DNA of 64,000 nt from Alphaproteobacteria bacterium (GCA_964291395.2 OZ219856.1:2016001-2080000), one strand, 5' to 3'. Counted from the stretch's first letter, positions 7,202 to 41,255 are shown. The notes: a model not told the origin generated them from the letters alone. A program made the numbers and translations.

Positions 7202-8959
7202 TCACCGCAAAGCAGCAGCAGCCGGGGCGTTCACCTGGACGGTAACGATATCGACGTCATGATATTGCTGGTGGCGAACGGAAGACGCGAGGTGCCGAAG
7301 CAGCCGGAGGGAAACCTCGTGCTCGACCGGTGTCTCGTCGCCTCGGTCCCCGAGCAGCGCGAGCCGGTCCTGAATGTTCTCCCCCCTCGGTGCGATCGCA
7401 AACTCCAGCACCGCGCCGCCGTTTCCTCGATAGGCAACCAGTCGCAGGCGCCGATCGGATCCTTCTCGGCCTTCGTCCGATTTGATGAGGCTCAGCAAGG
7501 TCTCCTCAGCGACCGCGTCAAGGCGAGCCGCCATCCCGCCATCCCAACCGCCACGGGACGCGAACGAGCGGAGGAACTCCCCGATCTTGGGCAGAGCCGA
7601 GAGATCGAGTTCCGCCTCCATCCGGCTTCGGCGGGACTCGGTCATCTCCAGGAACAAGGTCATGAAGATGGCCGCCAACCCGCCGGAGGTCATCCCATTG
7701 GAGAGCAGGCCGCCCGCGAAACCGGATGCGAACTCCGGGAATATCATGCCGTTTTGGAACCCGACCCCAATCCAGAAAGCGACGCCGGCGATCAGACCCT
7801 TCCGGTGGTCGATTCCGTCCTGAAGCAGGACCTTGATGCCGACCAGGAAGAGCATCGCCATCAGTATGGCGAGGTAGCCCGCGACGACGGGGCCCGGTAT
7901 CGCGAGAACCACGGCCAGGGCCTTCGGAAGGAACGCCAGAAGGATGAATATCGCCCCGGTGGCGATTCCGACGCCGCGCGCCGCGACGCCCGTGAGCTCG
8001 ATCAGCGATGCGCTCACCGACAAAGCGGTGTTTGGCACGGTCCCGGCGAAACCGCACAGCAAGTTGCTGAGTCCGTCGACGTTCACCGCACCCTGCACCG
8101 CGCGGAAATCCACCGCGCGTCCCTGTCGCCACGATACGCTCTGAACGGCGACGCAGCTGCTGATCGAGCGCAGTGTCACGATCAACGTCACCAGCAGGAA
8201 TGCCGGGACAAGCGACCAGAAGGCCGGCCCGAACTCGAGATCGAGACCGGGCCATTCGACGCTCGGAACGCCGATCCAGGGAGCTTCGGCAACACGGTCC
8301 GTGTCGTAAAGTCCGAACAGCGCGGACACCAAGGAGCCGGCAACCACCCCGAAGACGGGAGCCCAGAGACGTAGCGCCCCCCCGGCCCTCAGCGCGATGC
8401 AGACGATGACGAGTACGGTGGCAACGGCGCTCAACGGCGCGACGTGCGCCGGGCTTCCGTCCGGCACCTCGGTCAGCATTCCAAACACGACCGGCATGGC
8501 CGTGACCGGCACCAACATGAGCACCGTTCCCGAAACGGTCGCGGTCAGGATCCGCCGGAACAGCGCGATCCGCGCGGACAGGACGAACTGGAACAGTGCC
8601 GAAATGACAATCAGGGTTGCGAGCAGCGCCGGGCCGCTTTTCTCCATGGCTTCGATGCAAAGCCAGATGAAGGCCACGGAGCTGCTCATTACGAGCACGT
8701 GGTTGCACCCGATCCGACCGTAACGCACCGCTTGCAGGGCGGTGGCCGCGCCGCAAACCGCGACCGCCGCGAACACCGCCCATGACAGGTAGGTTTCGCT
8801 CGCGCCCGCGGCCCGCATCACGACGGTGGGAATCAGGATCGGTAGGGCGACGGTCAGAACTGTGAGCTGCAGGCCGAGGCCGAGACCGAGCGCCACCGAA
8901 ACTCTTTCGTCGGGCTGGTAGCGGACTCCCCCGCCAGAAGTGGAGTCGTTTCCGCTCAT
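7202..8959 (-). CDS. NCS2 (xanthine/uracil permease)-fold membrane protein fused to a C-terminal degenerate RsbW/SpoIIAB-like HATPase domain; candidate sup-cluster permease
   Basis: YQPDER...LGLQ, multiple TM helices, DGLSNLLCGFAGTVPNT, LTGVAAR, PKALAVVLAIPGPV. The soluble C-terminal tail LSALPKIGEFLRSF...LDAVAEETL...SLRLLRHLASSVRH follows the HATPase_c_2 pattern. Confidence 0.8.
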   Translation of the reverse strand: MSGNDSTSGGGVRYQPDERVSVALGLGLGLQLTVLTVALPILIPTVVMRAAGASETYLSWAVFAAVAVCGAATALQAVRYGRIGCNHVLVMSSSVAFIWLCIEAMEKSGPALLATLIVISALFQFVLSARIALFRRILTATVSGTVLMLVPVTAMPVVFGMLTEVPDGSPAHVAPLSAVATVLVIVCIALRAGGALRLWAPVFGVVAGSLVSALFGLYDTDRVAEAPWIGVPSVEWPGLDLEFGPAFWSLVPAFLLVTLIVTLRSISSCVAVQSVSWRQGRAVDFRAVQGAVNVDGLSNLLCGFAGTVPNTALSVSASLIELTGVAARGVGIATGAIFILLAFLPKALAVVLAIPGPVVAGYLAILMAMLFLVGIKVLLQDGIDHRKGLIAGVAFWIGVGFQNGMIFPEFASGFAGGLLSNGMTSGGLAAIFMTLFLEMTESRRSRMEAELDLSALPKIGEFLRSFASRGGWDGGMAARLDAVAEETLLSLIKSDEGREGSDRRLRLVAYRGNGGAVLEFAIAPRGENIQDRLALLGDRGDETPVEHEVSLRLLRHLASSVRHQQYHDVDIVTVQVNAPAAAALR

Positions 8960-9286
8960 ACCGGGAGCGAGCCCCCGCGAGCGTTATCTACGCGGCCGAA
9001 AACGTGAGACTTCATCGCCTGACAACTTCAACAATAGTTGCTACAAATGGTGAAATTATCTTGCTATGCGGCCCTCAGGCGCGGCGTCCGTGGATATGAT
9101 AAACAGACCGGCACGCCGGCCGAAAAGGTGGGAACCTTTATCCTGCGCGAGGTTGTCGAAGACTGTCATGAGACGGCACGGCATGGGCTCGAACCCGGGA
9201 CATATTCGGTGCCGTCCCGCTGTCGCCCACCTCCTCAGCCGCGATCGGCTTCGGCGGTGAGTGCAGTGTCTTCGGAGGGTCAGCCG

Positions 9287-10477
9287 ATGAAGACCGATCT
9301 GCGCGCGAAGCAGTGGGCGGCGAAGTATCCCGACCTCGGAACCGCCCCGCTGCCGACCGAGCCATATGTTTCGGAAGAATATTTTGCCCTGGAACGCGAC
9401 CGGGTCTTTCAGCAGTGCTGGCTGAACGTCGGGCGCGTCGAGGAGATCCCGAAGGCAGGAGACTACTTCGTGCGGGAGATTGCCATCTGCCGCGCCTCCG
9501 TTCTGGTGATCCGGGGCGCTGACGGTGTCGTGCGCGGCTTTCACAATGTCTGCTCGCACCGCAGCAACAGGCTTGTATTGGATGAGCGTGGGGCATGCGG
9601 GAGAACCCTGCATTGCCGGTTCCACAACTGGACATATGACGACAAGGGCATGCTGATACATGTTCCCGATGAAGAGAATTTCCACAACTTCGACAAGAAG
9701 GATCACGGCCTGACGCCGGTGAACACGGACATCTGGGAAGGCTTCATCTTCATCCACCTCGGCTTCGATCCGGCCGAGTCGCTGCGGGAGTATCTGGGCG
9801 GTGTCGCGGACCGTCTCGACAACTGCCCGTTTCATGAGATGAAGCTGTTCCAGACCTACAGGGTGGAGGAACAGGCCAACTGGAAGGTCGGACTCGATGC
9901 ACAGAACGAACTTTATCATTTCCCCATGCTGCATGGCCGCGCTCTGGGCAACCAGTTTATGGTGAACGGCGAGAGGCAGTGTCGTTATCTGGACGTCACG
10001 TTGTTCAAACGCCACAGCACTTGGTCCTGCGAATACAATCCAGACCAGAAACCGACCCCTCTCACGAAAAAACTCTTCGCATTCGACGGCATAATTCGTT
10101 CGTTCGAGATCCCGCGGATGATCGGCGACATGGATTATTTCACCGTGTTTCCGAACTTCGTCATCCTGCTTTACCGGTTGGGAACTACGGCGGCCTACAT
10201 GACCTACCAGTTTTGGCCGCTGTCCGTCGATCGGACGATCTGGGAAACGAGTATCTATTTCCGGGAGCCCCTGACGATACGGGAGAAGCTCCGGCACGAA
10301 TACTTCAAGCGTATCTCTCTCGACACGCTGCAGGAGGATTCAGCCGCGCACGAGACTGTACAGGCAGGTCTCGCCTCGCGTGCCAAGTCACATGTGGTCC
10401 TGCAGGACAGCGAAATCCCGATCCGCTACTTTCACAAAGTGCTGGAGGATTGTGTCGGGTTTTATCGGCAGGCATAG
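9287..10477 (+). CDS. Rieske non-heme iron oxygenase alpha subunit (start corrected to MKTDL)
   Basis: Rieske CSHR...CRFHNW; mononuclear site NWK...ELYHFPMLH...QED; GGAGG RBS upstream. Confidence 0.92.
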   Translation: MKTDLRAKQWAAKYPDLGTAPLPTEPYVSEEYFALERDRVFQQCWLNVGRVEEIPKAGDYFVREIAICRASVLVIRGADGVVRGFHNVCSHRSNRLVLDERGACGRTLHCRFHNWTYDDKGMLIHVPDEENFHNFDKKDHGLTPVNTDIWEGFIFIHLGFDPAESLREYLGGVADRLDNCPFHEMKLFQTYRVEEQANWKVGLDAQNELYHFPMLHGRALGNQFMVNGERQCRYLDVTLFKRHSTWSCEYNPDQKPTPLTKKLFAFDGIIRSFEIPRMIGDMDYFTVFPNFVILLYRLGTTAAYMTYQFWPLSVDRTIWETSIYFREPLTIREKLRHEYFKRISLDTLQEDSAAHETVQAGLASRAKSHVVLQDSEIPIRYFHKVLEDCVGFYRQA

Positions 10478-10494
10478 GCGTCGCCGCGACACAA

Positions 10495-10818
10495 TCAGTC
10501 TTGCGGGACGAAACGCAGCGGATCGCAGGCATCGACCGCCTCGCGACGCTTGTAAAGTTCGACCAGGGTGGAAACTTCCACTAGCGACAAAGACATGAGG
10601 TAGAGCCGATGCGCCGGCGCTGGCATGACCGCGCCGAAATAATCCTCCAAGTACCCAATTATTTCGTCCAGCCTCGACACCATCGCGTCGTAGAATGCAC
10701 GGATCTCGTCCATCGAGGACTCGGCCTTCTTCTCAGTTCTGGCGCGTTCCGGTTCCAGCGCCCAGTCCAGAAACGGCACCAGCTCCTCGAAAGGCTCCGG
10801 CAGCATGGGTTCGACCAT
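10495..10818 (-). CDS. Conserved small helical hypothetical protein of a type often found beside Rieske oxygenases
   Basis: LPEPFEELVPFLDWAL..E..R...SSMDEIRAFYDA pattern; GGAGAG RBS; directly downstream of the ThDP gene. Confidence 0.75.
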   Translation of the reverse strand: MVEPMLPEPFEELVPFLDWALEPERARTEKKAESSMDEIRAFYDAMVSRLDEIIGYLEDYFGAVMPAPAHRLYLMSLSLVEVSTLVELYKRREAVDACDPLRFVPQD

Positions 10819-10844
10819 CGTCGTTCGCTCTCCTGTTTTCCCGG

Positions 10845-12509
10845 CTACACCTTGCCCTCAATGGCAACTTCGATCAGGTGGGGGGCGTCCGAAGCGAGCG
10901 CGCCGCGCACCGCGTCCGCAAGCTCGTCCGGCTCCGCGACACGGGTTCCCGCGACGCCCATGCCCGCGGCCATCTCGAGGAAGCCTAACGGAGGATCAAC
11001 TAGGTCCATCCCGTGGTATGGCAGGTTGGAAGCCACGCCGAAGCGTCGCCGGTAGATGTCGAGATTGTGCTTGAGAATCCGGTATTCGCGATTGGCGAGG
11101 ATAACGAAAAGGATTGGCAGCCGGTGATGCGCCGCCGTCCACAATGCCTGAATGCTGTACATCGCCGACCCGTCGCCGGAGATACAAAACACCGATCGCT
11201 CCGGACAGGCGAGCTTGACGCCGAGGGCGCCGGCGATACCCTGACCGATCCCGCCGCCGCGGCCTCCGAAATAATAGCCGGGGCCGCGAAAGTCGAACGC
11301 ACGCGGGATCTCGCGACTGCCGGTGATCGCTTCCTCTACGATCACGGTCTCCTCTGGCGCCACGGCCGCCAGCGTCTCCAACGCGAGCGCGACCGGCATC
11401 GGCCGCCGTTCCCGCCCCATTTCTAGGAGCGCGCGCCGGGATTTCCGTTCCTTTTCCCGAAGTACCGCGAAGCTCTCGTTACGGTTGTCGGCGGCGGCGG
11501 CGAATGCGGCCGGGCGGTCTGACAGCACCAGCTCGGAGACCGCTTCCAAAGCGGGCCCGAGGCCGGCAATCAGGCCGGTTGCGAGCCCGCAATTGCGGGC
11601 GAGGCGTTCCGCCACCTCCTCGATTTGAACCACCGCCGCACCGGACGGGAACGGCCCGGTGGGCGCGTACCAGACCTCCTCGAAGAAGGGACCGCCCACC
11701 AACAGAACTAGGTCGGCGTCGCCCAGGCTCTGCGCAATGCTCGCCGCATCGGAGGAGAGGCGGCCCCGGAAGTTGGGATGTGCGTTCGGAATCGGCTGGT
11801 GCTGATGGACGAACTCGGCCCAGATCTTCGCGCCGGTCGCCTCCGCAAGCTTCAAGACGGCATCGCCCGCACCCGCCCGCGCGACGTCGTCCCCGATCAC
11901 GATCGCGGGTTCGGCGGCGGCCAGGAGTTGCCGGGCGATGTCGCGGACGCCCTCAGGGTCCGGCGCGGGGGCGCGGTAGAGTCTGCCTGAGCCGACGGCG
12001 GCGATATCGGTCTGCTGCTCCATCACATCGATCGGTAGGGAGACGAAAACCGGGCCCGAAGGGGGATCGTGGGCGGTCTTGAAGGCGCGCCGGATGATCG
12101 GGGCGATCTCGTCAGCGGTTTCGGCCTGGACGCTCCATTTCACCACGGGTGCCGCCATGGCCACTAGATCGTGGCCGAGGAGCGGGTCGCGCAGCCGAAG
12201 GCGGGTGTCCTGCTGTCCTGCCGTAAGCACCATCGGCGAGTTGGCGCGCAGCGCGCCGTAGATCATGCCGATGGCGTTGCCGAGGCCGGGTGCCACGTGG
12301 AGGTTGACCACCCCGGTGCCGCCACCGGCTTGGGCGTAGTAGCTCGCGGCGCCGACGGCAACGCCTTCGTGCAGCGCCAGCACGTAGGAGAGCGCCGGGT
12401 ACCGGGCCAAGCTGTCGATCAGCGGGCTCTCCGTGGTGCCGGGATTGCCGAATAGATGCCGCACCCCTTGCGCCAGAAGGCTCTCCATGAAGACGTCGTG
12501 CCCGTGCAT
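10845..12509 (-). CDS. ThDP-dependent enzyme, benzoylformate decarboxylase-like
   Basis: FGNPGTTE, LHE, NLHVAPGLGN, GDGSAMY...ANREY ThDP motif. Confidence 0.9.
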   Translation of the reverse strand: MHGHDVFMESLLAQGVRHLFGNPGTTESPLIDSLARYPALSYVLALHEGVAVGAASYYAQAGGGTGVVNLHVAPGLGNAIGMIYGALRANSPMVLTAGQQDTRLRLRDPLLGHDLVAMAAPVVKWSVQAETADEIAPIIRRAFKTAHDPPSGPVFVSLPIDVMEQQTDIAAVGSGRLYRAPAPDPEGVRDIARQLLAAAEPAIVIGDDVARAGAGDAVLKLAEATGAKIWAEFVHQHQPIPNAHPNFRGRLSSDAASIAQSLGDADLVLLVGGPFFEEVWYAPTGPFPSGAAVVQIEEVAERLARNCGLATGLIAGLGPALEAVSELVLSDRPAAFAAAADNRNESFAVLREKERKSRRALLEMGRERRPMPVALALETLAAVAPEETVIVEEAITGSREIPRAFDFRGPGYYFGGRGGGIGQGIAGALGVKLACPERSVFCISGDGSAMYSIQALWTAAHHRLPILFVILANREYRILKHNLDIYRRRFGVASNLPYHGMDLVDPPLGFLEMAAGMGVAGTRVAEPDELADAVRGALASDAPHLIEVAIEGKV

Positions 12510-12916
12510 ATCGCTTGTTCCTGCAGCTCAGATCGCGCTGGACCGTCTTCGATATCCGGCCGAGTCGTGGCTTGCCGCTGGGCTTAACCTCGTGCCGCGG
12601 CAGCATACGACTGCGGCAAGCCACGGCTCGATTTATCGCACAGTCTGGACCGGTTTTCGAGCGGCCACCAGACCAGGGGAAGGAGCACCGCACCAAACGC
12701 CCGCACCATTCAACGCGTCCTTACTGTAAGTCCCGAAGATCGCAAGCCTGGAGACAAAACTGAAGACGTTGAAGAACCGGAACCCTGGTTGTGGATTCGA
12801 ACATGACCATTTTTGGCCCGGTAGAATCCCTGAAGGCATGCCTGCCGAGCGCCTGGGATGTACTCGCCACGCTGCCACCAAATTCTTGCATGTCCGCCAC
12901 CAAAATATGTATGCCA

Positions 12917-12933
12917 GGCAAATCGCATTTGCC
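12917..12933. promoter_or_regulatory. Perfect palindrome GGCAAAT-cgc-ATTTGCC, candidate operator upstream of the PKS
   Basis: 7-bp arms ending about 40 bp before the probable PKS start, in the divergent intergenic region. Confidence 0.35.
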
Positions 12934-12973
12934 CGCAAAGTTGTGGCACTCTCTCGGTCGGGGAGATAATTCG

Positions 12974-18900: not shown

Positions 18901-21900
18901 CGTCGTCGGCATGACGTTCCGCAATTTCGGTTCGGAGACGGTGACCCTGGAAAAGATGATCGTGCCCGCGCCGCCCGGCTTCTCGGTCACGGAGCTTGCG
19001 ACGATCCCGACGGCGTTCGTCTCGGCGGCGCTGTCGTTCGAGCTCTCGGGGCTGAACGCCGGCGACCGCGTGCTGATCCACGCCGGCGCCGGCGGGGTCG
19101 GGCTCGCGGCGGTCCAGCTTGCCCAGGCGGCGGGCGCGGAAGTCTTCGCCACGGCGAGCGCGCGCAAGCGCGACTATCTCCGCTCGCTCGGCGTGAAGCA
19201 CGTGTCCGACAGCCGCACGACGGCGTTCGGCCAGGAAATACTCGACGCCACCGGCGGCGCCGGGGTTGACATGGTGCTGAACAGCCTGACCGGCGAGGGC
19301 TTCATCGAGGCGAGCCTTTCATGCCTGGCCCACGGCGGCCGCTTCGTGGAGATGGGCCGGGTCGACATCCTGAGTGAGGACGAGATGGCGGCGGCGCGGC
19401 CCGACGTCACTTACGCCATCCTCAAGATCGACGTCCTCAAAGAGGAAGAGCCCGCGCGGGCCGGGGAGATCCTGCGGCGGGTGATGGAGCGGCTCGCGGC
19501 CGGCGAGCTGACCCCGCTCGTCCACGCCCGATGGCCCGTCGCCGAAGCGGGATCCGCGATGAAGTGCATGCAGGGCGCGCGGCACATCGGCAAGATCGTC
19601 TTTACCAACTCGCCGCTCGCCAGGGGAACCTTACGCGAGGACCGGACCTATCTGGTGACCGGCGGGCTCGGCGGCATCGGCTGCGCAGTGGCCGGCTGGC
19701 TGGCGGATCGCGGCGCCGGCGTCATCGTGCTCAACGGCCGGCGGCCACCGGATCCCGAGGTCGCGGAGGCGATCGAGGCGCTGCGCAGGCGCGGAGCCAC
19801 CGTTCAAGTGGAGCTCGCGGATGTGACCGAGTCCGAGGCGGTGGACGCCATGCTGAAGCGGATGGACGCCGATCTTCCGCCGCTTGGCGGCGTGATCCAC
19901 AGCGTCGGCGTGCTGTCCGACGCCGCAATCGGCAATCAGAATTGGGAAAACTTCGAAGCGGTGCTGTGGCCCAAGGTCCTGGGGGCCTGGCACCTGCACA
20001 GGGCGACCGTCGGACGCGATCTCGACCTGTTCGTTCTCTTCTCGAGCGTCGCTGGCGTCCTCGGCAATCCGGGCCAGGCCAACCACGCGGCTGCCAACGC
20101 CTTCCTCGACCAGCTCGCCGCCCATCGCCGCGCGCTCGGACTCGCCGGCCAGTCCATCGCCTGGGGCGCGTGGTCGGAGATCGGCGAGGCCGAGGAGCAG
20201 CGCGAGCGGATGACCCGGCGCTCCGCGTCAGGCGGGATCGAGTGGATCACCCCGCAGCAGGGCCTCAGGGCCTTCGACCGGCTGGTGCGCGAGGACGCCA
20301 CGACAGGCGTGGTGCTGGCACGGGACTGGGAGGCGTTCGGCGAATCCCTCGAGAGCCGCCCGCCGTTTCTGGAAGACCTTCTGTCCGACGGCCAGGACAA
20401 GGCTGCGGACGACGCACCGGCCGACGACCTGCTCACCCGCCTGCGGGAGGCACCCGCGGCGACGCGCGGGGAGGTGCTCGCGGCGTTCCTGCAAGGGGAG
20501 GTCAAGGCCGTGCTGAGACTGCCGACCTCGCCCTCGCCCACAGTCGGATTCTTCGATCTGGGCATGGATTCCCTGATGGCGGTGGAGCTGCGCAACCGCC
20601 TGAACCGCGCCTTCGTAGGCGCCTACACGGCGTCCAATACCGTGGTGTTCGACTACCCCGACATCGCCGCGCTCTCCGCCCACCTGGTGGATGAAACTGC
20701 CGAGGTCGTCGGCGCGGACGCGCCCGCGACGACGCCGGAACCCGAGACGCCCCCGGAGCCGGCGACCCGGCCGGCGGCGCGACGCGACGACAGCACCGAC
20801 CCCGACGCCGTCGCCATCGTGGGCATGGCGTGCCGGTTCCCGGGCGCGCCGGACTTGCCGGCATTCTGGAATCTACTCGATTCCGGCGCGGATGCGGTGG
20901 CGGACGAGCGCCGGGAGGCTGGCCCCTGGAGCGATTTCGTGGACAACCTGCCCACGCCGTACGCCGCCTATGGCAGGGCCGGGTTCGTCGACGGAATCGA
21001 TATGTTCGATGCGCGGTTCTTCGAAATCTCGCCGATCGAGGCCCGGCTGATGGACCCCCAGCAACGCATGCTGCTGGAGACGACCTGGCAGGCGCTGGAA
21101 GACGCAGGAATCGATCCCGACAGACTGAAGGGAAGCAACACCGGCGTCTATGCCGGTATCGCCTCCAGCGAATACCGCGACCTGATGAAGACCGGCGATT
21201 ACGGAATCGGCTATCTGAGTACCGCCGCGAGCATGGCGGTCGGGCGGCTCTCCTACCGCTTCGGCCTGGCGGGGCCGACCATGCCGGTGGAACTGAACTG
21301 CGCTTCTTCGCTGGTTGCGGTTCACCAGGCCGTCACGGGCCTGCGCACGCGCGAGGCGGACCTTGCCCTTGTCGGCGGCGTGAGCGCCGTGCTCTCGGCT
21401 CCGGTCACCAGGGAAATGGCGGATCTGGGGCTCCTGTCGCGGGGCGGCGTGTGCAGAACGTTCGACGCCGAGGCGGACGGCTTCGTGCGCGGCGAGGGCT
21501 GCGGGATGGTCGTTCTCAAGCGTCTCTCCGACGCGGAGGCCGACGGCGACCGCATCTGGGCGGTGATCCGCGGCTCGGCGGTAAACCAGAACGGGGCGAG
21601 CGCCGGGGCCACGGTTCCGAACGGCCCCGCACAGGAACGGGTGATCGAACAAGCCCTTTCGCGGACCGGCTTCGCCCCCTCGGAGGTGGACTACCTGGAG
21701 GCGCACGGCGCTGGATCGGCGTTCGGCGATCCGATCGAGGTGCAAGCGGCGGCGGCGGTCTACGGCCAGGACAGGGTCGAGGACCGCCCGCTGTTGATCG
21801 GCTCGGTGAAAACCAATATCGGGCATCTTGAATCCGCGGCCGGGGTCGCCAGCCTCATCAAAACGGTGCTGGCGATGAGCCGGGGGACGATCCCCAGGAC

Positions 21901-23323
21901 CCGGAACTTCCGGACCCCGAGCCCGCTCATCGAGTGGGACCGTCTGCCCGTGCGGGTGACAGACGAGGCGATGGACTGGCCGTCCGATCCCGACAGGCCG
22001 CGCCGGGCAGGGGTCAGCGCATTCGGAATTTCCGGTGTGAACGCCCATGTCGTGCTGGAGGGATACGGTAGCGCCAACGGCATCGCCTCCAACGCCTCGG
22101 ACGGGCCTTCGTCGGCGGGACCCGCCAGGCGTGTCGCCGTGTCCCTGCCGGAACCGATCGCGGCACCTTCGGACGATAAGGGCGCGCTCACCGCGCGCGC
22201 GGTTCGTCTGTTGCCGCTCTCGGGCAAGTCGGAGGATGCGCTGCGGGCGCTCGCGGGGCGGTATCTCGCTTGGCTCGACGAGCAGGCCGACGGACATTCG
22301 ACCGGGGACGGCGCCCCCGGCCCGCTGCTCTCCGACATGGCCTGGACCGCCGGCGTCGGGCGAAGCCATCTCACGTACCGGGCCGGTGTGGTGTTCGGCG
22401 ATGCCGCTTCGCTGCGGGACAGGCTGATGGCGCTCGCGGCAGCGGCGGAGGTCGCGAAACCGGCGACCGCGGCGAAGGTCGCTTTCGTCTACCCGGGCGA
22501 AGGCGTCGACTGGGCGGGCATGGGCGAAGCGCTCTACGAGAGCGAGCCGGTGATGCGGGCGGTGCTCGACCGTTGCGAGGCGGCGATACGCGACGAGCGG
22601 GGCGAGTCGCTGCTCGACGTGATGTTCGGTCGGACCGGGTCGGCAGGAACCCTCGACGACCCCGCGTGGTCGAAGCCCGCGACCTACGCGATGACATGCG
22701 CGCTCACGGCGCTCTGGTCGAGCGTCGGCATCCGGCCGAGCGTGGCGCTGGGGCACGGCGCGGGGGAGATTGCGGCGGCGCGGGCCGCCAGCGTGTTCGG
22801 CTTGGAGGACGGGTTGCGGCTCGCGGCCGTCCCCGGCGAACCGGAGACGGTGCTGGAAGGCGTCGCGGTCGCACCGCCCTCAATCGGCCTGGTGAGCCGT
22901 GCGGCGGGTCGTCCGGTCGGGCCGAACGACGGCCTGGACGGGGCCTACTGGCGCCGCCAGCCGCAGGAAGTCGCACCGATCGAGCGCTGCGCGGAGACCC
23001 TGGCGGAGCTGGGTGTCGAGGCGGTCATCGAGATCGGCCCGCGGAGCGCAATGGGGCCGGCGCTCGCCCGTGCCTTGCCGGCGTCGTCAAACGGCGCGGG
23101 CGCGCCGGAGCCGATCGAGAGCCTGCGGTGGCCGTCGGAGGACGGGGAAGAACCGGCGGCGCTTCCCGATGGCGGCTTCGCGGACGCGGTGGCCGGGGCC
23201 TATGAGGCGGGTCTTCCGGTTTCCTTCGCGGGCCTCTTCGCGGGCGAGGCCAGGCGCCGGGTCGCGCTTCCCGGCTATCCTTTCCAGCGCCGACGGCACT
23301 GGCTCACGAAGCGGGAACGGTAA
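12974..23323 (+). CDS. supA: SupA-type type I PKS/FAS: KS-AT-DH-MT-ER-KR-ACP-KS-AT(inactive); probable start MTEPRS
   Basis: KS1 DTACSSSL/HGTGT/NIGH; AT1 GHSLG...SPAYHS; DH HRVFGRLIAP; MT LEVGAGTG; ER LIHAGAGGVG; KR TGGLGGIG...GQANHAAAN; ACP GMDSL; KS2 ELNCASSL/HGAGS/NIGH; AT2 GHGAG with an internal deletion. GGGAG RBS before 12974. The domain string matches the sponge ubiquitous PKS family. Confidence 0.9.
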   Translation: MTEPRSPDAYRECNGPGLPTPLAPIAIVGMACRFPGADGLAAFWRMLEAGESGVIEGVPGSGVGRIGELFPDDAGLRPACRFGAYLDDLDLFDAAFFRISPVEAQLLDPQQRMMLETCWRALEDAGMDPDSLNGSRTGVYAGISNNEYRGLILETASPDEPAVSLYSVTGTSFNTAIGRVAFALGLEGPALALDTACSSSLVAIHQAVTGLQRGEADLALAGGVHAILSGRLLAMRANAGMLSPDGRCATFDAAANGYVRGEGCGIVVLKRLAQAEADGDRIWAVIRSTALNQDGASPGLTVPSGPAQEKVIEAALQQAGLEPAEVDYVEAHGTGTEVGDPIEAEATGTAYGRGRTEGQPLLIGSVKTNIGHLEAAAGVAGVIKTVLAMKRGVIPRHLHFQEPSPEIDWERLPLKVTATPTDWPRATDRPPRAGISGFGWSGTNAHVVLEGYGESEGADAEGPEHWTTGLPRSVPVSQPASVLQAAPAAETIVPRGTRFLPLSGRSEGALRELANKYLSWLDERTGDNSAEMLADMAWTAAVGRSHFGHRAGVVFRDADSLRDALRALEEADGTVAPRAAKRVAFAFTGQASQWPGMGEALYASEPVVRAVLDRCDTVLAESRGDSLLDVMFGRPEAAGDLDDPQWKQPAIYALECALVELWASVGVRPDVVVGHSLGEIAAAYTADVFGLEEGLRFAAARGGLIGALPGEGAMAAVFAPESRVAAALEEHNAASGGIGLCIAADNGAHQVISGPTVEIEAILERLEAESVRVARLRKSPAYHSAMVEPALDDLEAALAETAFAPPSIPFVSNLTGRALEAGEAPDAAYWRRQAREPVAFRACVETLAEQGVDAVIEIGPHAVLGPMAEMAWPESAGAAPPAVLSSLQRPARDEEPPPAGSGGGFVEAVAGAYEAGLAVSFPGFFAGEKRRRIALPGYPFQRERYWVEGSRRQRSGTGHPLLGTRHESASGETAFDTEVFPSDPGWLNDHRVFGRLIAPGALYGAMAASATRAEGSEAPVVEDFQMQSALIFPDEDAEEGSAEPGRRMQVLLDDTEDGAFRRVRVLSRGEGEDGWTLHAEGRISTGAAGSPQGASPLDVEGLKSDLSPVNLAAYYRAKSAVGIDLGPSFRTLEALWARAGEAVAEVALPAGRGDTPLDVHPLVLDGCFQTFAAARNPDGGEEGVTYLPFAWERLWLTGSLPERLVCHVRVREGPEGAATDAGNGEMPEVWAADLRLYDPDGALVGELAGFTVKRATRAALLSAVEGIDELLYEVVWQDRALAPGIAPADFLTSPSEISATTNLFPEYLASVDVDAADRAALLADLEQLSEAYALATLDRLGWKRVAGEKVESAELRESLNVGVEHERLFRRMLEMQARAGVLEQAGDGFVVTVASGEPLPEGLVDDPDAWAGEMAVRYAHGTTEIGLFRRSADALADVLQGRMDPLTLLFSSGEPTAADLYLKAPVARAANRLLADAVAALLAELPEGRKLRVLEVGAGTGSATAAVLPELPEGRYDYTYTDISAGFFAEAESRFGGAEAAIDYRVLDIEKDPVEQGFDRHGYDLVIASNVLHATRYLNETLAHCLEVLAPSGQLVALENLRGQGWLDLTFGQLDGWWRFADEYRPHHALATPAVWRQALGDAGFEDIAILGFDESDPNANPDRGVIAAQGPSDVTEAPGAWVVAADRGGVAAELAAELAAQNQMVVLAGAEAGPDVPSVPAGAGIVEAFVETTRRESWKSLLEDLPTDLPLAGIAHLVGLGGHGAQATTEEMAEDARHATASALALTQALMESDLTLSKGLWFVTRGAQVLERERGGQLAGAALWGFGKVAAREAPRLQPRMLDLDPADAELPPDLADEFLHPDAETHIAHRFGRRRGARLIRAAAVADRLTLPEEPGWELEPDAGGSLDAIGVMSMPERRLEQGEVRAAVESFGLNFRDVFIAIGVVDDVMGGEFCGRVLEVGEGVTSVAVGDRVVGMTFRNFGSETVTLEKMIVPAPPGFSVTELATIPTAFVSAALSFELSGLNAGDRVLIHAGAGGVGLAAVQLAQAAGAEVFATASARKRDYLRSLGVKHVSDSRTTAFGQEILDATGGAGVDMVLNSLTGEGFIEASLSCLAHGGRFVEMGRVDILSEDEMAAARPDVTYAILKIDVLKEEEPARAGEILRRVMERLAAGELTPLVHARWPVAEAGSAMKCMQGARHIGKIVFTNSPLARGTLREDRTYLVTGGLGGIGCAVAGWLADRGAGVIVLNGRRPPDPEVAEAIEALRRRGATVQVELADVTESEAVDAMLKRMDADLPPLGGVIHSVGVLSDAAIGNQNWENFEAVLWPKVLGAWHLHRATVGRDLDLFVLFSSVAGVLGNPGQANHAAANAFLDQLAAHRRALGLAGQSIAWGAWSEIGEAEEQRERMTRRSASGGIEWITPQQGLRAFDRLVREDATTGVVLARDWEAFGESLESRPPFLEDLLSDGQDKAADDAPADDLLTRLREAPAATRGEVLAAFLQGEVKAVLRLPTSPSPTVGFFDLGMDSLMAVELRNRLNRAFVGAYTASNTVVFDYPDIAALSAHLVDETAEVVGADAPATTPEPETPPEPATRPAARRDDSTDPDAVAIVGMACRFPGAPDLPAFWNLLDSGADAVADERREAGPWSDFVDNLPTPYAAYGRAGFVDGIDMFDARFFEISPIEARLMDPQQRMLLETTWQALEDAGIDPDRLKGSNTGVYAGIASSEYRDLMKTGDYGIGYLSTAASMAVGRLSYRFGLAGPTMPVELNCASSLVAVHQAVTGLRTREADLALVGGVSAVLSAPVTREMADLGLLSRGGVCRTFDAEADGFVRGEGCGMVVLKRLSDAEADGDRIWAVIRGSAVNQNGASAGATVPNGPAQERVIEQALSRTGFAPSEVDYLEAHGAGSAFGDPIEVQAAAAVYGQDRVEDRPLLIGSVKTNIGHLESAAGVASLIKTVLAMSRGTIPRTRNFRTPSPLIEWDRLPVRVTDEAMDWPSDPDRPRRAGVSAFGISGVNAHVVLEGYGSANGIASNASDGPSSAGPARRVAVSLPEPIAAPSDDKGALTARAVRLLPLSGKSEDALRALAGRYLAWLDEQADGHSTGDGAPGPLLSDMAWTAGVGRSHLTYRAGVVFGDAASLRDRLMALAAAAEVAKPATAAKVAFVYPGEGVDWAGMGEALYESEPVMRAVLDRCEAAIRDERGESLLDVMFGRTGSAGTLDDPAWSKPATYAMTCALTALWSSVGIRPSVALGHGAGEIAAARAASVFGLEDGLRLAAVPGEPETVLEGVAVAPPSIGLVSRAAGRPVGPNDGLDGAYWRRQPQEVAPIERCAETLAELGVEAVIEIGPRSAMGPALARALPASSNGAGAPEPIESLRWPSEDGEEPAALPDGGFADAVAGAYEAGLPVSFAGLFAGEARRRVALPGYPFQRRRHWLTKRER

Positions 23324-23375
23324 GAGGGAAGCGGCTGTCGCTTCGTGACGGTATGCTCATACGCGCGCGGAAATC

Positions 23376-24275
23376 TTAGTAAACGCGGTGCCTCTCAAGG
23401 AACTCCCGGAGCAGCTCGGCACACTCTTCCGGCCTTTCCAACTGCAGCAAATGGGTCGCCTCAGGCAGGAAATCGTAGTCCACGGCGGACACTTGCCCCA
23501 GGTCGAAGGTCGGAAGGTACGCGTTTCTGATCGTCGGATCGCCACCGATGACTTTTGTCGGGCAGTAGAGCAGATCGAGATCCAACAGCGGGAAAAAACT
23601 CCGCCCGTAGTCCATGAGTTGGGCCTCGTATTCGCGAGGGCAGCGTAGTTCGTATTGCTCGTCGCTCGCGGATTGTCGAAGCGTTGTCCGGGCCATGAGT
23701 TCGTGCACGCCGGGAGCAACCCGTGCAAAGGTCGGCAGGATCCCCAGGAACTCGGCAAACGCCTCACGTGTCTTGAAGCGGTAGCCTCGCTTTCGGATCA
23801 TTTCGGCCGCGCGTTCCGCAGCTTCATGAAGCTCTACCTGACTAGCGCCCGGTTTGCACAGCGGCGGATCGAACAGAATCAGTGCCGAGTAACGACTGTA
23901 CAAAGAGAGAAGCGGCATGAGCGTTGCGAGGGAGTGAAAAACGCCCACGATCGGTTTTTCACCGTATTCGCGGGAGATCGCGTCGAGAATGAGATCGTGA
24001 TCGGAGATCAGCGTCGGAATGTTGTGATCCCGCCGGGCTCCGACGTCATTCCAGCCGTGGTTCCTGAGGTCGTAGACCATCAGGTCGAAATCGCCGGCGA
24101 GCAGCGACCAGAACGGATAATAGAGATCGACCGCCAGGCCGTTGCCATGGGTCAGCAGGAGCCGGGGGCCCGATGGATTGCCATGCCGCCGCACCGTGGT
24201 CACGGTGTTCTCGTCGAGCCGGACTTCGCATGTCGAAACGGGCTCGGGTATCGTCCATACTGCTTCTTCCGCCAT
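23376..24275 (-). CDS. supD: Alpha/beta hydrolase, SupD-like (start corrected to MAEEAVW)
   Basis: THGNG oxyanion segment, YDLRNHG, VFHSL nucleophile elbow, THLLQLERP; adjacent to the PKS and the ACP. Confidence 0.8.
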   Translation of the reverse strand: MAEEAVWTIPEPVSTCEVRLDENTVTTVRRHGNPSGPRLLLTHGNGLAVDLYYPFWSLLAGDFDLMVYDLRNHGWNDVGARRDHNIPTLISDHDLILDAISREYGEKPIVGVFHSLATLMPLLSLYSRYSALILFDPPLCKPGASQVELHEAAERAAEMIRKRGYRFKTREAFAEFLGILPTFARVAPGVHELMARTTLRQSASDEQYELRCPREYEAQLMDYGRSFFPLLDLDLLYCPTKVIGGDPTIRNAYLPTFDLGQVSAVDYDFLPEATHLLQLERPEECAELLREFLERHRVY

Positions 24276-24452
24276 GGCGGGGTCCGGTTTCTTCCCGACG
24301 CGGAGCTGGGAACAGGGGCACGGCACTGGCGGGACCGTCGCCCACCCCATGGCGGAAATGCCAACCGCCTCCGGGTTCGGAGGCGGCCGGACTTCGTTCA
24401 CTTCGTATCGGAGACCATATCCCGAATGCGCGCAGGCGTCCCCGAGTTCTCG

Positions 24453-24680
24453 TCAGCCGCGTGCATCGATATGCGCGACAAGATCCTGCAGGGTCTTGAA
24501 TTGCAGGCAGTCGTCCGCGACCAACCCCAGGCCGAACTCCTCGTTGACCGACTTGTAGAACGCTACCGCTTCCACCGAAGAAATCCCGACGTCGCTGAAC
24601 TGAGCGTTGAAATCGGGCTCATGGTCGAGGTCGAAATTATCAGCGATGATTTTGCTGATGCGCTCTTTAGTTGAAGCCAT
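24453..24680 (-). CDS. supB: Stand-alone acyl carrier protein, SupB-like
   Basis: 75 aa, acidic, ACP helix pattern, DVGISSV phosphopantetheine site, EEFG, TLQDLVAHI; GGGAG RBS. Confidence 0.82.
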   Translation of the reverse strand: MASTKERISKIIADNFDLDHEPDFNAQFSDVGISSVEAVAFYKSVNEEFGLGLVADDCLQFKTLQDLVAHIDARG

Positions 24681-24899
24681 AACCGTTCACTCCCTATTCG
24701 ACGGTGATAATGAGGCGCGAGAAGCACGCCAATGCAGGACGCAGGCACGGCGTCACGATACCGAGACAAGGTGCCGCATACCGTGCTCACTTTGGTATGC
24801 GTCTGCGCACTCGGTCAAGCCCTTTCAATTCCGCCGGCCGTCCAGCTTGGCCGAAAAACGTCCGTGCACTAACATTCCAACTCTGGACCACTCAGTGGG

Positions 24900-25108
24900 G
24901 CTGGTCAGTGATCGGTGTGCCGGATGAGACGTGGGGCGAAGCGATTCTCGCCGTGATCGTGGCTCTGCCCCGATCCGATCTTGTCTCCGGCAACGGCGAG
25001 GACGCCCTCATCGCGCATTGCCGACGGTTCATTGGCGGCCACAAGGTGCCTCGCCGGGTCCGCTTCGTCGACGCCTTACCCAAGAGCGCGATTGGGAAGG
25101 GCGCGTGA
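24900..25108 (+). pseudogene. Remnant: C-terminal AMP-binding_C domain of an acyl-CoA synthetase
   Basis: VIGVPDETWGEAILAVIV...LIAHCR..IGGHKVPRRVRFVDALPKSAIGK with no upstream adenylation core. Confidence 0.75.
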
Positions 25109-26724
25109 ACTACGATCTCGACACGCTCCGCGGAGATCTCTTCGGTGGCGTTACGTCAATGGTGGTGGCACTGCCGCTGTCGTTGGGCTTCGGCATAGCG
25201 TCAGGGCTGGGAGCGGCCGCAGGCCTGTACGGCGCGATCGCGGTCGGCTTTTTCGCGGCGGCGTTCGGCGGCACGCGAGCTCAGATTTCCGGCCCTACCG
25301 CGCCAATGACCGTCGCCATGGCGGTCATCGTCACAATTTATTCGACTAACCTCACCGAAGCCCTGACAGTGGTTGTCCTGGCCGGTCTGCTTCAGGTGAC
25401 TCTGGGCCTGTCGAAGGTCGGCCGTTTCGTGGCGTATACGCCACATATGGTCGTGTCCGGATTGATGTCCGGCATCGGCATCGTCATCATCCTCATGCAG
25501 ACCCTGCCGTTCGTCGGGGCGGCCGCTACGATGGGCGGCCCCATGGGCGCGGTCCGGGCGCTGCCGGAGGCCGTGAGCAATATCGACACCGGCGCATTCG
25601 CTATAGCCGCGGTGACGCTTGCCGTCGGTTTTCTCTGGCCGCGCCGGCTGGCGAGACTTGCGCCCGGCCCTCTGGTGGCGCTGATCGCCGGTACGGCCCT
25701 GGGCGTTCTGTGGCTGAACGACGCGCCGGTTATCGGGAAGATCCCGACCGGCCTGCCGAATCTGCAGTGGGATTTGCCGTCTGGCGACTTCCTGCTGTAT
25801 GCGCTGGAACCCGCGCTTATTCTCGCCCTGCTCGGCTCCGTGAACAGCCTCCTGTGCTCTTTGATCACCGACTCGCTGACCGGGAACCGCCACAACCCGG
25901 ATCGGGAGCTGGTCGGTCAGGGCCTCGGCAACATTGTCGCGGGGCTCTTCGGGGCAATGCCCGGCGCCGGTCACGGCGTAAACACCGTGGCCAACGTCCG
26001 CGCCGGCGGGCTGACGCCGATATCGGGCATGTTGTGTGCACTGCTTCTGCTGGGGGCGGTACTGGGCCTTGGCCGGTTCGTCGAGCCAATTCCTCTCGCC
26101 GCTCTCGCCGGCGTCCTGATGAAGGTCGGCTGGGACATCATCGACTGGCGTCTTCTCTCCCGGCTGCACCGCCTCCGGCGCGAACACCTGCTCGTCATGC
26201 TGATGACCCTGGTCCTCACGGTGTTCGTCGATCTGGTCACCGTCGTGGCACTCGGGCTGATCGCCGCGGGGATGGTCCAGGCGCGGCAGCTGGAGCGCCT
26301 GGAGCTTGACAGCGTGGTTTCGGTGCCGCTGCTGGACACGACGTTTTTCGACCAGGGGGAGGAGGAAGACCCCTATGCGGCGCGGGTCGGCCTCGTTGCT
26401 CTCAGGGGGAGCTTCACCGTCGCCTCATCCCATAAGCTGGTGGGTGTGATCGGCGAGGACATCAAGGATCACGAGGTCGTCATCTTTGATTTCTCCGATG
26501 CCACCTATATGGATGACAGCGCCGCCATGGTGATGGAGAGACTCATGGACGTCGCGGACGAGGCACGGACCGGGTTCATCGTGATGGGCCTCTCGGGTTC
26601 AGTCGAGAACACCCTCCACGCGCTCAATATCCTGAAGAAGGTTCCCGAGGATCATGTGGTCGACAAGCTGGACGACGCTCGGCAGGTCGCCAAGAATCTC
26701 CTCGGCCTCGGAGATGATCGGTGA
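25105..26724 (+). CDS. SulP/SLC26 (BicA-like) permease with C-terminal STAS domain (GTG start)
   Basis: GDLFGG...VALP, GLYGA, FGGT..QISGPT, DRELVGQGLGN, IPLAALAGVL, STAS FDFSDATYMDDSA. Confidence 0.92.
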   Translation: MNYDLDTLRGDLFGGVTSMVVALPLSLGFGIASGLGAAAGLYGAIAVGFFAAAFGGTRAQISGPTAPMTVAMAVIVTIYSTNLTEALTVVVLAGLLQVTLGLSKVGRFVAYTPHMVVSGLMSGIGIVIILMQTLPFVGAAATMGGPMGAVRALPEAVSNIDTGAFAIAAVTLAVGFLWPRRLARLAPGPLVALIAGTALGVLWLNDAPVIGKIPTGLPNLQWDLPSGDFLLYALEPALILALLGSVNSLLCSLITDSLTGNRHNPDRELVGQGLGNIVAGLFGAMPGAGHGVNTVANVRAGGLTPISGMLCALLLLGAVLGLGRFVEPIPLAALAGVLMKVGWDIIDWRLLSRLHRLRREHLLVMLMTLVLTVFVDLVTVVALGLIAAGMVQARQLERLELDSVVSVPLLDTTFFDQGEEEDPYAARVGLVALRGSFTVASSHKLVGVIGEDIKDHEVVIFDFSDATYMDDSAAMVMERLMDVADEARTGFIVMGLSGSVENTLHALNILKKVPEDHVVDKLDDARQVAKNLLGLGDDR

Positions 26725-26762
26725 GGAATCAAGTGTTTCCAGATTGATCGTCTCCGATAAAG

Positions 26763-26860
26763 TTATATCTTGAGCAGCTTCTGGGCCGCCTCCGTCGGCG
26801 CACCGTCTCGCGTCACATACATGTAAAGAAGGGACTGCGACACGCCGAGCCGCTGTGCGG
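26763..26860 (-). pseudogene. Remnant HTH resembling a serine resolvase/invertase C-terminus
   Basis: AQRLGVSQSLLYMYVTRDG resembles the Hin-type HTH (A..LGVS.STLY.Y); no catalytic domain upstream. Confidence 0.45.
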
Positions 26861-27163
26861 GCGATCTAATTTGCGGAGCGGCGCTTCGGCGGTGCCCCCG
26901 GCGGGTGTGTGTTGGTCGGCGCGTGCATTGGACGCCGTTCAACAGGCGAGTCCCCAACATTGGGGAAGTGCGGTAGCGCGCAATCCGACTATCCTCACCT
27001 AACGTGCAGAGGTGAGAAAGTAAGCAGGCAAGCCGTAGGCGGCCGCACCGACAGGGACAGGCAGGTTTGCGGCCGGGAATATCGGCAACGCGGCATAAAA
27101 GATGGCTGCCGTTCCAAGACGGACGGCGGGATCATGCCGTTCAGGACTCGAAAGCGGTAAGCG

Positions 27164-27502
27164 ATGGATGTTGCGACGGAACGGAAGAACGACGTCTTAT
27201 CGGTCCTGGTGAGCGGACGCATCGACGGCACCAACGTCATGCAATTCGAAGAGACGGTCAGAACCGTGATCGAGGAGAACGACCACGCCGTGGTCATGGA
27301 CCTTGAGCGACTTTCCTACATCAGCAGTGCGGGCCTTCGCATCCTTCTCCTGATCGCCAAGAGCCTCATGGGCCGGGATGCCAAGCTGGTGCTCTGCGCC
27401 ATGTCGGATCAGATGCGCCAGGTCTTCGAGACAGGCGGTTTCGACAAAATCATCCCAATCCACCCGTCCAGGGCCGAGGCGCTTTCTTCCTTCGGTGCCT
27501 GA
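27164..27502 (+). CDS. STAS-domain anti-sigma factor antagonist (RsbV/SpoIIAA-like)
   Basis: VSGRID, DLERLSYISSAGLRILL with the phosphorylatable Ser, VFETGGFDKIIPI. Confidence 0.93.
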   Translation: MDVATERKNDVLSVLVSGRIDGTNVMQFEETVRTVIEENDHAVVMDLERLSYISSAGLRILLLIAKSLMGRDAKLVLCAMSDQMRQVFETGGFDKIIPIHPSRAEALSSFGA

Positions 27503-28785: not shown

Positions 28786-29030
28786 CCCGTGGGCTTGCCC
28801 GGTCGGGAGAAGTCCAGCCTCACGCCGCTCATCCAGGCCCCCAGGTCGAGCTCCTTGCTGATGAACTCGGGTCCGTTGTCGACCCGGATGGTCCTGGGCA
28901 TGCCATGGACCCTGGTGACCCGTTCCAGCGTCGTCACCACGTCCGAGCCGCGGTAGCTCTGCCGGACGTCGACTGCCGGCGAAAGCCGGCTGAAGGCGTC
29001 GGCAATCATCAGGATGCGGATGCGCCTGCC
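28786..29030 (-). mobile_element. IS3-family transposase (integrase core) internal fragment
   Basis: GRRIRILMIADAFSR...PRTIRVDNGPEFISKELD...LDFSRPGKPT; stops before the third (Glu) catalytic motif; no terminal repeats seen. Confidence 0.88.
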
Positions 29031-29579
29031 TCGTGAAGCCCTATCTGACTAGAACCAGGCTTGCACAGCGGCGGATCGAACAGAACCAGTGCCGAGTAAT
29101 GCTTAGTGAACGAAAGAAGCGTCACGAGCGTGGACAGGGAGTGAAAGACGCCGACTGTCGGTTTTCTCCCATAGACACGGTCGTTGGACTCGAGAATGAG
29201 GTCGTGATCGTGAATCAGCGTCGGAACATTGTGATCGCGTTGGGCGCCGACGCTATTCCTGCCGTGGTTCCTGAGGTCCTACACGAATAGATCGAAGTCG
29301 TCCGCGAGCAACGACCAGAACGGAAAATAAAGATCAATCGTGAGGCCGCCGTGGCTCGGTAGGAGCCGGAGGTCGGCGTCCGGATTACCGTGCTACCGCA
29401 CGGTCGTGACCGTCTCTTCGTCGAGGTCGACATCGCTGACCGAAAGAGGTTCCAGAATTTCCCAAACGGCTTCTGTCGTCATGGCGAAAGACCCGGCTCT
29501 CCTTATCGAAATCCGGTTCATGATCCAGGTCGAGGTTTTCGTTGATAATCTTCCTGAGACGGTCTTCCGCCGATGACAT
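29031..29579 (-). pseudogene. Decayed second copy of ACP (5' part) plus SupD-like hydrolase (5' half)
   Basis: MSSAEDRLRKIINENLDLDHEPDFDK matches the ACP at 24453-24680. MTTEAVWEILEPLSVSDVDLDEETVTTVR* (stop at 29393) matches the hydrolase start. DNA at 29031-29100 aligns with about 23825-23892. Confidence 0.85.
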
Positions 29580-29753
29580 GTGGATACTCCCATGACGTTT
29601 GAGTTCGGATCCCGATGGTTTCGCCCAGTCGTTGCAAGGCACGGCCTTTCTCGCCACAAGACTTCCGGCGCGCCGACGCCGGGCACGGTTTGGCAGACCC
29701 CGCCGAAGTAATCGTCCGGGACATATACGGAGGCCCCGGTGAGGGGAACGGCA

Positions 29754-36502: not shown

Positions 36503-36752
36503 CCTTCCCTTCGACACCCTTCCGAACGTGCTCGGGGTCGCGGCGGACCCCATCCGCCTTGCTTCTTCCCAGACGTTAGTTCAGCACTTGGATCGCATTC
36601 AAGTACACGGGCCACGACAAGAAGTCGCGTGTCATCATATTCGGCGATCCGCCGTCGCCGTAGAGCCGCGCAGACCACGTGGCCCGAGGCGGACCGGCGT
36701 GCTATGAAGGATGACGGTCAGCAGCATGACATGCCGCCTCGAGGACGGAGCC

Positions 36753-41213: not shown

Positions 41214-41255
41214 CCGACGACACGGATTCCGCTGTCTTGGTCCGACCGCCCCTGT

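Follow-up and report, generated by a model that had tools for sequence, protein, structure and literature searches.

The chromosome of an Alphaproteobacteria bacterium (GCA_964291395.2) carries a membrane permease with a domain that resembles an anti-sigma-factor kinase, and this permease is encoded close to a large polyketide synthase (PKS). What kind of protein is this permease, does it belong to the PKS, and what might its unusual domain do? The locus lies in a stretch of 64,000 nucleotides (OZ219856.1:2016001-2080000, hereafter the window), which is a chromosomal part of a 4.16 Mb genome with a background GC content of ~0.62. An initial annotation of the window had combined this NCS2 permease with a SulP permease, a free STAS protein and a free acyl carrier protein (ACP) into one membrane-bound partner switch for the PKS lipid. 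We found that permeases with a pseudo-anti-sigma-kinase tail form a widespread family and that one of its clades belongs to PKS clusters of the sup type. This finding still stands as new. No description of an NCS2-RsbW fusion or of a partner switch acting on a permease was found in literature searches.

A permease family with a pseudo-kinase tail

The open reading frames (ORFs) of the window were scanned with Pfam and NCBIfam models. The permease and its tail are encoded as follows.

7202..8959, minus strand: NCS2/NAT-family permease with RsbW-like tail, 585 amino acids (aa); PF00860 at residues 28-401, E 7.9e-33
7205..7642, minus strand: RsbW/SpoIIAB-fold pseudo-kinase domain, residues 440-585 of the permease; Foldseek, hhalign

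The permease scored 114.1 bits with PF00860 (cut-off 27) and 41.7 bits with NF037981 (cut-off 40). It stayed under the cut-offs of TIGR00801 (135.9 versus 291.8) and pbuX (168 versus 414). The protein shares the domain of 7+7 transmembrane segments (TM) and the PF00860 match with the NCS2/NAT transporters UraA, UapA and XanQ, and it aligned to the UraA and UapA structures across TM5-TM13. In contrast to these transporters it possesses an added RsbW-fold domain and altered residues in TM8 and TM10, which are described below.

The tail gave zero Pfam matches even at E 10 and was absent from the 10 genome-wide matches of PF13581; a PF13581 match is precomputed on one close homologue. A profile of 51 tails compared with PDB sequences produced matches at chance level only (D-Ala-D-Ala ligase, p22; E ~0.8). 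An AlphaFold2 model of the tail, calculated with 51 homologues, reached a pLDDT of 76 and a pTM of 0.71. The modelled elements follow the order strand, two helices, two strands, helix, disordered loop, helix, two strands. A Foldseek search with this model revealed UsfX, RsbW and SpoIIAB chains at ranks 1-19, which comprise every match with E <= 0.001 (E 6e-7 to 5e-4, probability 1.00, TM score 0.49-0.75). Comparison by hhalign with true RsbW-like proteins from this genome and from related loci yielded probabilities of 92% and 94% over the first 55-70 columns of the tail; against 12 true RsbW-like proteins the probability was 94% at E 1.3e-7.

The nucleotide-binding motifs of these kinases are not retained in the tail. 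The N-box Asn, invariant in the 12 true RsbW-like proteins, is replaced by Ser490 in the window's protein and by Thr in the consensus of the 51 tails. The GGLG box is invariant in the true kinases and has no counterpart in the tail, and no conserved Gly was found among the 51 tails in their second half, the region of the G1/G2 boxes. Because the ATP-binding Asn and Gly motifs are lost, the tail is a pseudo-kinase of the RsbW/SpoIIAB fold. Compared with RsbW, SpoIIAB and UsfX (GHKL, PF13581) it has the same fold and element order, and the first two helices are recognisably homologous. It differs from them by its fusion to a transporter, by the Ser/Thr in place of the N-box Asn, by the missing G1/G2 glycines, by remaining undetected by Pfam in the window's protein and by having no sigma factor nearby. 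Across the 51 sequences the tail has 10 invariant positions and 28 with a conservation of at least 90%, an SSVRHQQYH block among them. The architecture resembles that of the SLC26/SulP-STAS transporters (BicA, SLC26Dg, DauA), among them the SulP of the window, in which a 7+7 elevator-type permease is likewise joined to a cytoplasmic regulatory domain derived from partner switches. Unlike these proteins, the NCS2 fusion appends the kinase-side partner instead of the STAS side.

The family is large, and the C-terminal ~146 residues of every member form such a pseudo-kinase domain. Among 8000 candidates scored, 4710 were relatives of the whole permease at E <= 0.001, and the best 120 of them were of near-equal length with 64-96% identity. 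A search with the tail alone returned 569 proteins from 1.84 billion representatives. Among the 150 tail matches listed, the tail formed the C-terminus of proteins of ~570-600 aa or was located in shorter proteins, among them many possible gene fragments. The genome loci compared are the best 80 of 140. They come from metagenome-assembled genomes of at least nine phyla (Pseudomonadota, Gemmatimonadota, Nitrospirota, Binatota, Latescibacterota, Acidobacteriota, Chloroflexota, Rhodothermota and Thermodesulfobacteriota) with 50-77% identity. The family tree departs from taxonomy and therefore indicates horizontal spread. Such a spread, over more than ten phyla for the fusion as a whole, represents at this level of identity a clear case of accessory genes that are common to one type of community.

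The substrate site was examined by alignment to UraA and UapA. The UraA residues E241, H245 and E290 correspond to R264, S268 and V315 of the window's permease. Consequently, neither these canonical residues nor E356 and Q408 of UapA are kept: the TM8 Glu is exchanged for Arg264, the His/Asp four positions further for Ser268 and the TM10 Glu/Gln for Val315. The window's clade as a whole carries Arg instead of the TM8 Glu and has no acidic residue in TM10. Across 85 rows of the family, position 264 is occupied by R (30), Q (28), E (26) or K (1), and copies with Asp or Gly are also present in metagenomes. In the tree the residue at this position tracks well-supported clades, which are named R-, Q- and E-type here. 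Since position 264 varies between R, Q and E by clade, the NCS2 site is re-specified and not degenerate. Both permeases of the locus had initially been described as site-degenerate. Both indeed lack the canonical acidic residues, and for the NCS2 permease the term degenerate has to be replaced by a site that changes from clade to clade.

Three tailed paralogues are encoded in the source genome, namely the R-type copy of the window, an E-type copy at C1:2214750 and a Q-type copy at C1:1044845. E-type paralogues retain the Glu at position 264. Tandem or nearby tailed permeases with differing site residues were observed in loci L016, L040, L044 (Candidatus Foliamicus), L075, L031 and L132; the tandem of Foliamicus has the order E-type, then Q-type. 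Such arrangements fit a diversification of specificity by duplication. Further neighbours were recorded in loci L041, L042, L048, L054, L056, L073 and others. At loci of the Binatia type the Q-type permease adjoins a TRAP transporter (DctPQM), and a gene for a YCII-domain protein is found 12 bp downstream. A PhyH dioxygenase adjoins the permease at loci of the Latescibacterota type and at others.

The Arg264 clade beside sup-type polyketide synthases

Besides the permease, the PKS island of the window contains the following genes.

9038..10477, plus strand: Rieske oxygenase alpha subunit; PF00355, PF00848
10845..12509, minus strand: thiamine pyrophosphate (TPP)-dependent enzyme, benzoylformate decarboxylase-like; PF02775, PF02776, PF00205
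12791..23323, plus strand: type I PKS, SupA-like, 3510 aa; Pfam domains, NF045894 with 2094 bits
23376..24401, minus strand: alpha/beta hydrolase; PF12697, E 4.7e-13
24453..24680, minus strand: free ACP; PF00550, E 7.6e-10

The domains of the PKS are arranged in the order KS-AT-DH-MT-ER-KR-ACP-KS-AT. Its gene has a GC content of ~0.70 versus ~0.62 in the flanks, and the GC profile of the window exhibits a block of 0.68-0.71 spanning 14-24 kb. Sup PKSs have been described as small mono-modular enzymes that are abundant in sponge microbiomes, and the sup enzymes have been proposed to produce mid-chain-branched fatty acids (PMC4245539). The island resembles a sup cluster in combining a mono-modular PKS that contains a methyltransferase domain with companion genes. 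Judged by architecture, recurring gene set and context, the PKS of the window is SupA-like and its permease probably is of the 'SupE' type. The name SupE appears as a permease in a table of PMC3908369; among 10 homologue clusters looked up, none carried a SupE accession or name. The window's PKS terminates with its second KS-AT pair, which is not followed by an ACP domain.

The neighbourhood of the permease was inspected within 10 kb in the 80 genome loci and in an independent second set of 78 metagenome loci. All of the following counts are uncorrected for shared ancestry. In the genome set a SupA-like PKS was present at 15 of the 80 loci, an ACP at 10 and the hydrolase at 8. Every one of the hydrolase homologues belonged to a locus linked to a PKS or ACP. 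The Rieske oxygenase had homologues at 7 of the 80 loci, and the five full-length ones were all found at loci with PKS, ACP or hydrolase. The TPP-dependent enzyme (10845..12509) was found at none of the 80 loci and is not a conserved neighbour.

This linkage is concentrated in the R-type permeases. A PKS, ACP or hydrolase within 10 kb accompanied 15 of the 30 R-type rows (the window included) versus 1 of the 55 others. The metagenome set gave 23 of 25 R-type rows versus 1 of 51 others, and the lone exception is a second permease copy at a locus that also bears an R-type copy. The window's copy and all linked rows sit in a single R clade of 31 rows with an SH-aLRT support of 97. We also searched 50 of the 80 genomes. 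A SupA-like PKS was detected in 26 of the 29 with an R-type locus versus 6 of the 21 with other types; one of these six contains a PKS of only 43% identity, and R-type copies may exist elsewhere in the six. Homologues with 56-83% identity to the window's PKS were encoded in 31 of the 50 permease-bearing genomes searched. The R-type NCS2 permease is a genuine companion of sup clusters.

With respect to function, the R-type permease might move an anionic ligand, either the carboxylate made by the PKS or one of its precursors, and Arg264 might bind the carboxylate. The Arg264 clade provides the long-known and functionally obscure sup PKS clusters with a defined transporter partner and with a candidate determinant of specificity, and this partner could help to identify the Sup product. 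The Rieske oxygenase, which is GbcA-like according to NCBIfam at a score under the cut-off, recurs with sup-type clusters at L012, L015, L017, L029, L057 and L138. The gene order of L138 is that of the window, with permease, Rieske oxygenase (62%) and PKS.

The SulP and STAS genes downstream of the island

The remaining genes of the proposed switch, SulP-STAS and the free STAS, are located downstream of the island among the following features.

24704..25108, plus strand: acyl-CoA ligase remnant, C-terminal domain only; PF13193 at residues 69-132, E 2.8e-14
25105..26724, plus strand: SulP/SLC26 permease with C-terminal STAS domain; PF00916, E 1.1e-73; PF01740, E 1.6e-9
27164..27502, plus strand: single-domain STAS protein, 112 aa, anti-sigma-factor antagonist type; PF01740, E 1.8e-20; TIGR00377
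28096..28704, plus strand: predicted secreted protein, no Pfam match; homologues with 45-47% identity in L039 and L128
28755..29009, minus strand: transposase/integrase core fragment; PF00665, E 1.2e-10, profile positions 30-102 only
29028..29686, minus strand: degraded second copy of the N-terminal part of the hydrolase and of the ACP; direct repeat with broken ORFs resembling ACP and hydrolase

The SulP protein matched the BicA structure 6KI1 with E 1.7e-96 and scored 248.7 bits with PF00916 and 37.9 bits with PF01740. It failed the BicA equivalog model NF050096 (452.7 versus a cut-off of 880). The Na+ ligands of BicA are given as Asp258, Thr262 and Thr302 (bioRxiv 10.1101/2022.06.08.495363). 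They correspond to N247, C251 and G291 of the window's protein, numbered from the start at 25105. Ten SulP homologues from relatives were compared at the position equivalent to D258; nine possess Asp or Glu and one, from a congener, also Asn. By this alignment the SulP of the window is an Asn variant of the BicA-like site. The motif TDSLT had been considered as the counterpart of the BicA D258/T262 site and was rejected after the chain numbering had been matched to the published ligands.

The free STAS protein scored 82.7 bits with TIGR00377 (cut-off 53.45). Its Ser55, part of the conserved sequence YISSAGLR, was invariant across 22 homologues and is presumably the phosphorylation site by analogy. 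The protein is 79% identical to the STAS protein encoded at C1:2153129, which adjoins a true HATPase_c_2 gene at C1:2152580, and 74% identical to a STAS protein directly adjoining another true HATPase_c_2 gene at C1:2621572. It is an orphan paralogue of RsbV-like genes whose partners, at other places of the genome, are RsbW genes. An identically scoring copy of the RsbV-RsbW pair at C1:2621 kb is located on C3:1052 kb and could stem from a duplication or from an assembly artefact (estimated contamination 9%).

A SulP gene was found near the tailed permease at 0 of the 80 genome loci and at 0 of the 78 metagenome loci, and a SulP match was obtained in one of five genomes of the same genus, with 53% identity. 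A conserved operon of SulP and free STAS was also considered. It was rejected within flanks of 1.5 kb, since none of ten homologous SulP loci in relatives showed a free STAS gene there.

The surroundings of both genes contain gene debris. The acyl-CoA ligase remnant runs into the SulP reading frame, and its N-terminal AMP-binding part is not found upstream, where the ACP gene occupies the place. On the other side stand the transposase fragment and the degraded hydrolase/ACP copy. A direct repeat of 300 nucleotides (23821-24120 and 29028-29327) shows 79% identity. This debris downstream of the PKS island points to a recent rearrangement. We regard SulP-STAS and the free STAS as unrelated chance neighbours that lie where mobile DNA has rearranged the chromosome, and not as parts of a conserved system. 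Homologues of the secreted protein (28096-28704) are encoded beside tailed permeases in L039 (3764-4294) and L128 (10937-11437).

Partner-switch genes and the role of the tail

Genes for partner-switch proteins were found next to tailed permeases of other clades. A local STAS profile detected STAS genes within 10 kb at 13 of the 80 loci, none of which is linked to a PKS. At 12 Nitrospirales loci of the Q-type clade a true RsbW gene follows the permease on the opposite strand. At 11 of them it is followed by genes for a STAS protein, a response-regulator-PP2C protein, a periplasmic binding protein and a HAMP histidine kinase; at the twelfth, L033, the downstream DNA is too short to show the remaining genes of the module. 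The E-type locus L034 contains the same five genes after the permease in another order, starting 99 bp past the stop codon, and true RsbW and STAS genes are similarly placed after the permease at the E-type loci L131 and L134. In both L039 and L128 an E-type copy precedes two STAS genes at a distance of a few kb, and an R-type copy lies a few kb upstream. In L039 the E-type copy is followed by a periplasmic binding protein, a STAS protein, an ammonium transporter and a second STAS protein; in L128 a PKS is located beside the R-type copy. A published table of a swf fosmid lists a homologue of the 'SupE' permease between two anti-anti-sigma ORFs and next to a PKS (PMC3908369).

The weight of these neighbourhoods is limited. 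A random point in this genome has a STAS gene within 10 kb in ~4% of cases (estimated from 9 STAS hits in 4.16 Mb), and the 13 loci represent two or three independent lineages rather than 13. STAS adjacency is therefore a suggestive and not a strong sign of a link between tail and STAS. The direct adjacency of RsbW in two clades is also suggestive, and here chance is harder to invoke. These gene arrangements give contextual support only to a putative contact between the pseudo-kinase tail and a STAS protein. Complex prediction for the tail and the free STAS gave a score of 0.02 against a mark of 0.32, which counts neither for nor against such a contact.

Partner switches are known to act on sigma factors and on a small number of soluble targets. 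The genome encodes four sigma-70-family hits, eight free STAS proteins, four RsbW-like proteins, one SpoIIE-type phosphatase and three tailed permeases. The small number of sigma hits compared with the many STAS proteins, RsbW-like proteins and tailed permeases argues for targets other than sigma factors. The full set is not encoded together in the window, which contains STAS domains and the pseudo-kinase; true RsbW, PP2C and sigma factors are encoded elsewhere, and complete modules adjoin the permease in other lineages only. No sigma factor or PP2C was detected among the window ORFs scanned, and the four Sigma70_r2 (PF04542) matches and the single SpoIIE-type phosphatase (PF07228) of the genome are all located outside the window. 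The modules at the Nitrospirales loci and L034 resemble the HptB-PA3346-PA3347 (HsbR/HsbA) system of Pseudomonas aeruginosa, as they comprise a response-regulator-PP2C, an RsbW-like kinase, a STAS protein and a sensor kinase. In that system the dephosphorylated STAS protein binds FlgM, a partner other than its kinase (PMC8256260). The modules beside the permeases differ from it in that the kinase is a separate gene, in that they include a periplasmic binding protein and a HAMP kinase, and in that the putative extra partner would be the tail of a transporter.

The region as a whole is probably a sup-type PKS island that consists of the PKS, the hydrolase, the ACP, the Rieske oxygenase and a tailed NCS2 permease from a horizontally spread family, with SulP and the free STAS as unrelated genes. 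The tail would then act in the cytoplasm as a regulatory or dimerising unit, comparable to the STAS tail that SLC26 transporters carry, and may serve as a docking site for unphosphorylated STAS proteins of partner switches encoded elsewhere. Several observations weigh against this interpretation. The hhalign match covers only the first 70 columns of the tail, and a PKS is missing from the 10-kb surroundings of half of the R-type genome loci. In congener G005, the one with supA, the hydrolase adjoins this gene and the permease is absent from its side, and the query used detected no R-type copy in G005. We judge it very improbable that a single membrane partner switch for export or sensing of the PKS lipid is built from the NCS2-pseudo-kinase, SulP-STAS, the free STAS and the ACP, as proposed in the initial annotation. 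According to that model the permeases dock via tail and STAS, the free STAS competes and acyl-ACP is received. The STAS domain of E. coli YchM/DauA binds ACP. All four genes lie at most 20 kb from the PKS, and the calls on which the model was built are correct: the NCS2 permease (PF00860) with its RsbW/SpoIIAB-like domain (Foldseek, hhalign), SulP-STAS (PF00916, PF01740), the RsbV/SpoIIAA-like free STAS (PF01740, TIGR00377 above cut-off), the free ACP (PF00550) and the lack of a sigma factor or PP2C in the window. The missing acidic site residues of both permeases also fit the model, and so do L039 and L128, where a STAS gene of 55% identity and the homologue of the 28096 gene are found within 10 kb of the R-type permease, in L128 together with a PKS. 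The predicted co-occurrence of the tailed permease, SulP-STAS and free STAS with supA failed on the absence of SulP from both sets of loci and of STAS from all PKS-linked genome loci. Nor is the tailed permease confined to genomes with supA: of five congeners, four possess it (E-type) and one a SupA-like PKS. Against the model stand also the location of SulP and STAS amid gene debris, the ten SulP loci devoid of free STAS, and the unrelated contexts of the homologues, namely the pairing of the 74-79% identical STAS paralogues with true RsbW genes and the RsbW, response-regulator-PP2C and STAS genes abutting the Nitrospirales and L034 permeases. Docking of ACP and a permease heterodimer found no support.

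For the tail itself, a purely structural or dimerising role with no STAS or sigma partner is a possibility to which we give limited credence; the adjacent modules would then be due to chance or be a relic of gene fusion. RsbW and SpoIIAB are homodimers. This explanation agrees with the 67 of 80 loci that have no STAS gene, with the two other paralogues of the genome, around which no STAS or RsbW match was found for tens of kb, and with the collapse of the adjacency to about two or three lineages. In its first helices the tail resembles the RsbW proteins encoded in this genome, which would fit an origin by fusion. It is opposed by the conservation of the tail, which is higher than that of the substrate site and, with its 28 highly conserved positions and the SSVRHQQYH block, exceeds the usual need of a spacer or dimer interface. 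In addition, one and the same five-gene module adjoins permeases of two clades (the Q-type of Nitrospirales and the E-type of L034, L131 and L134) in differing gene orders. It is possible, though not likely, that the NCS2-pseudo-kinase family is the membrane end of a partner switch, in which an unphosphorylated STAS protein would toggle between true RsbW and the dead tail. A cascade of periplasmic binding protein, histidine kinase and response-regulator-PP2C would thereby gate transport, or the transporter would report substrate flux, instead of sigma control. The module would have spread horizontally through many phyla with its substrate site re-specified per clade, one clade serving the sup pathway. 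If this were true, a dead kinase-side tail on a transporter would represent a post-translational route from partner switches to membrane transport. A transceptor, whose tail would retain an anti-sigma role and hold back a sigma factor, or some other regulator, as a function of substrate transport, is unlikely. The fold of the tail is that of anti-sigma factors, and SpoIIAB-type proteins bind sigma factors via the same face. Set against this, the four Sigma70_r2 matches of the genome are not near any of the three paralogues, and no sigma gene was present in the annotated loci.

Downstream of the island the window also encodes a TauD-family dioxygenase, an amidase and a nitrile hydratase alpha subunit (35630-36553, 39789-41894), which are unrelated to the permease family and the sup-type island.

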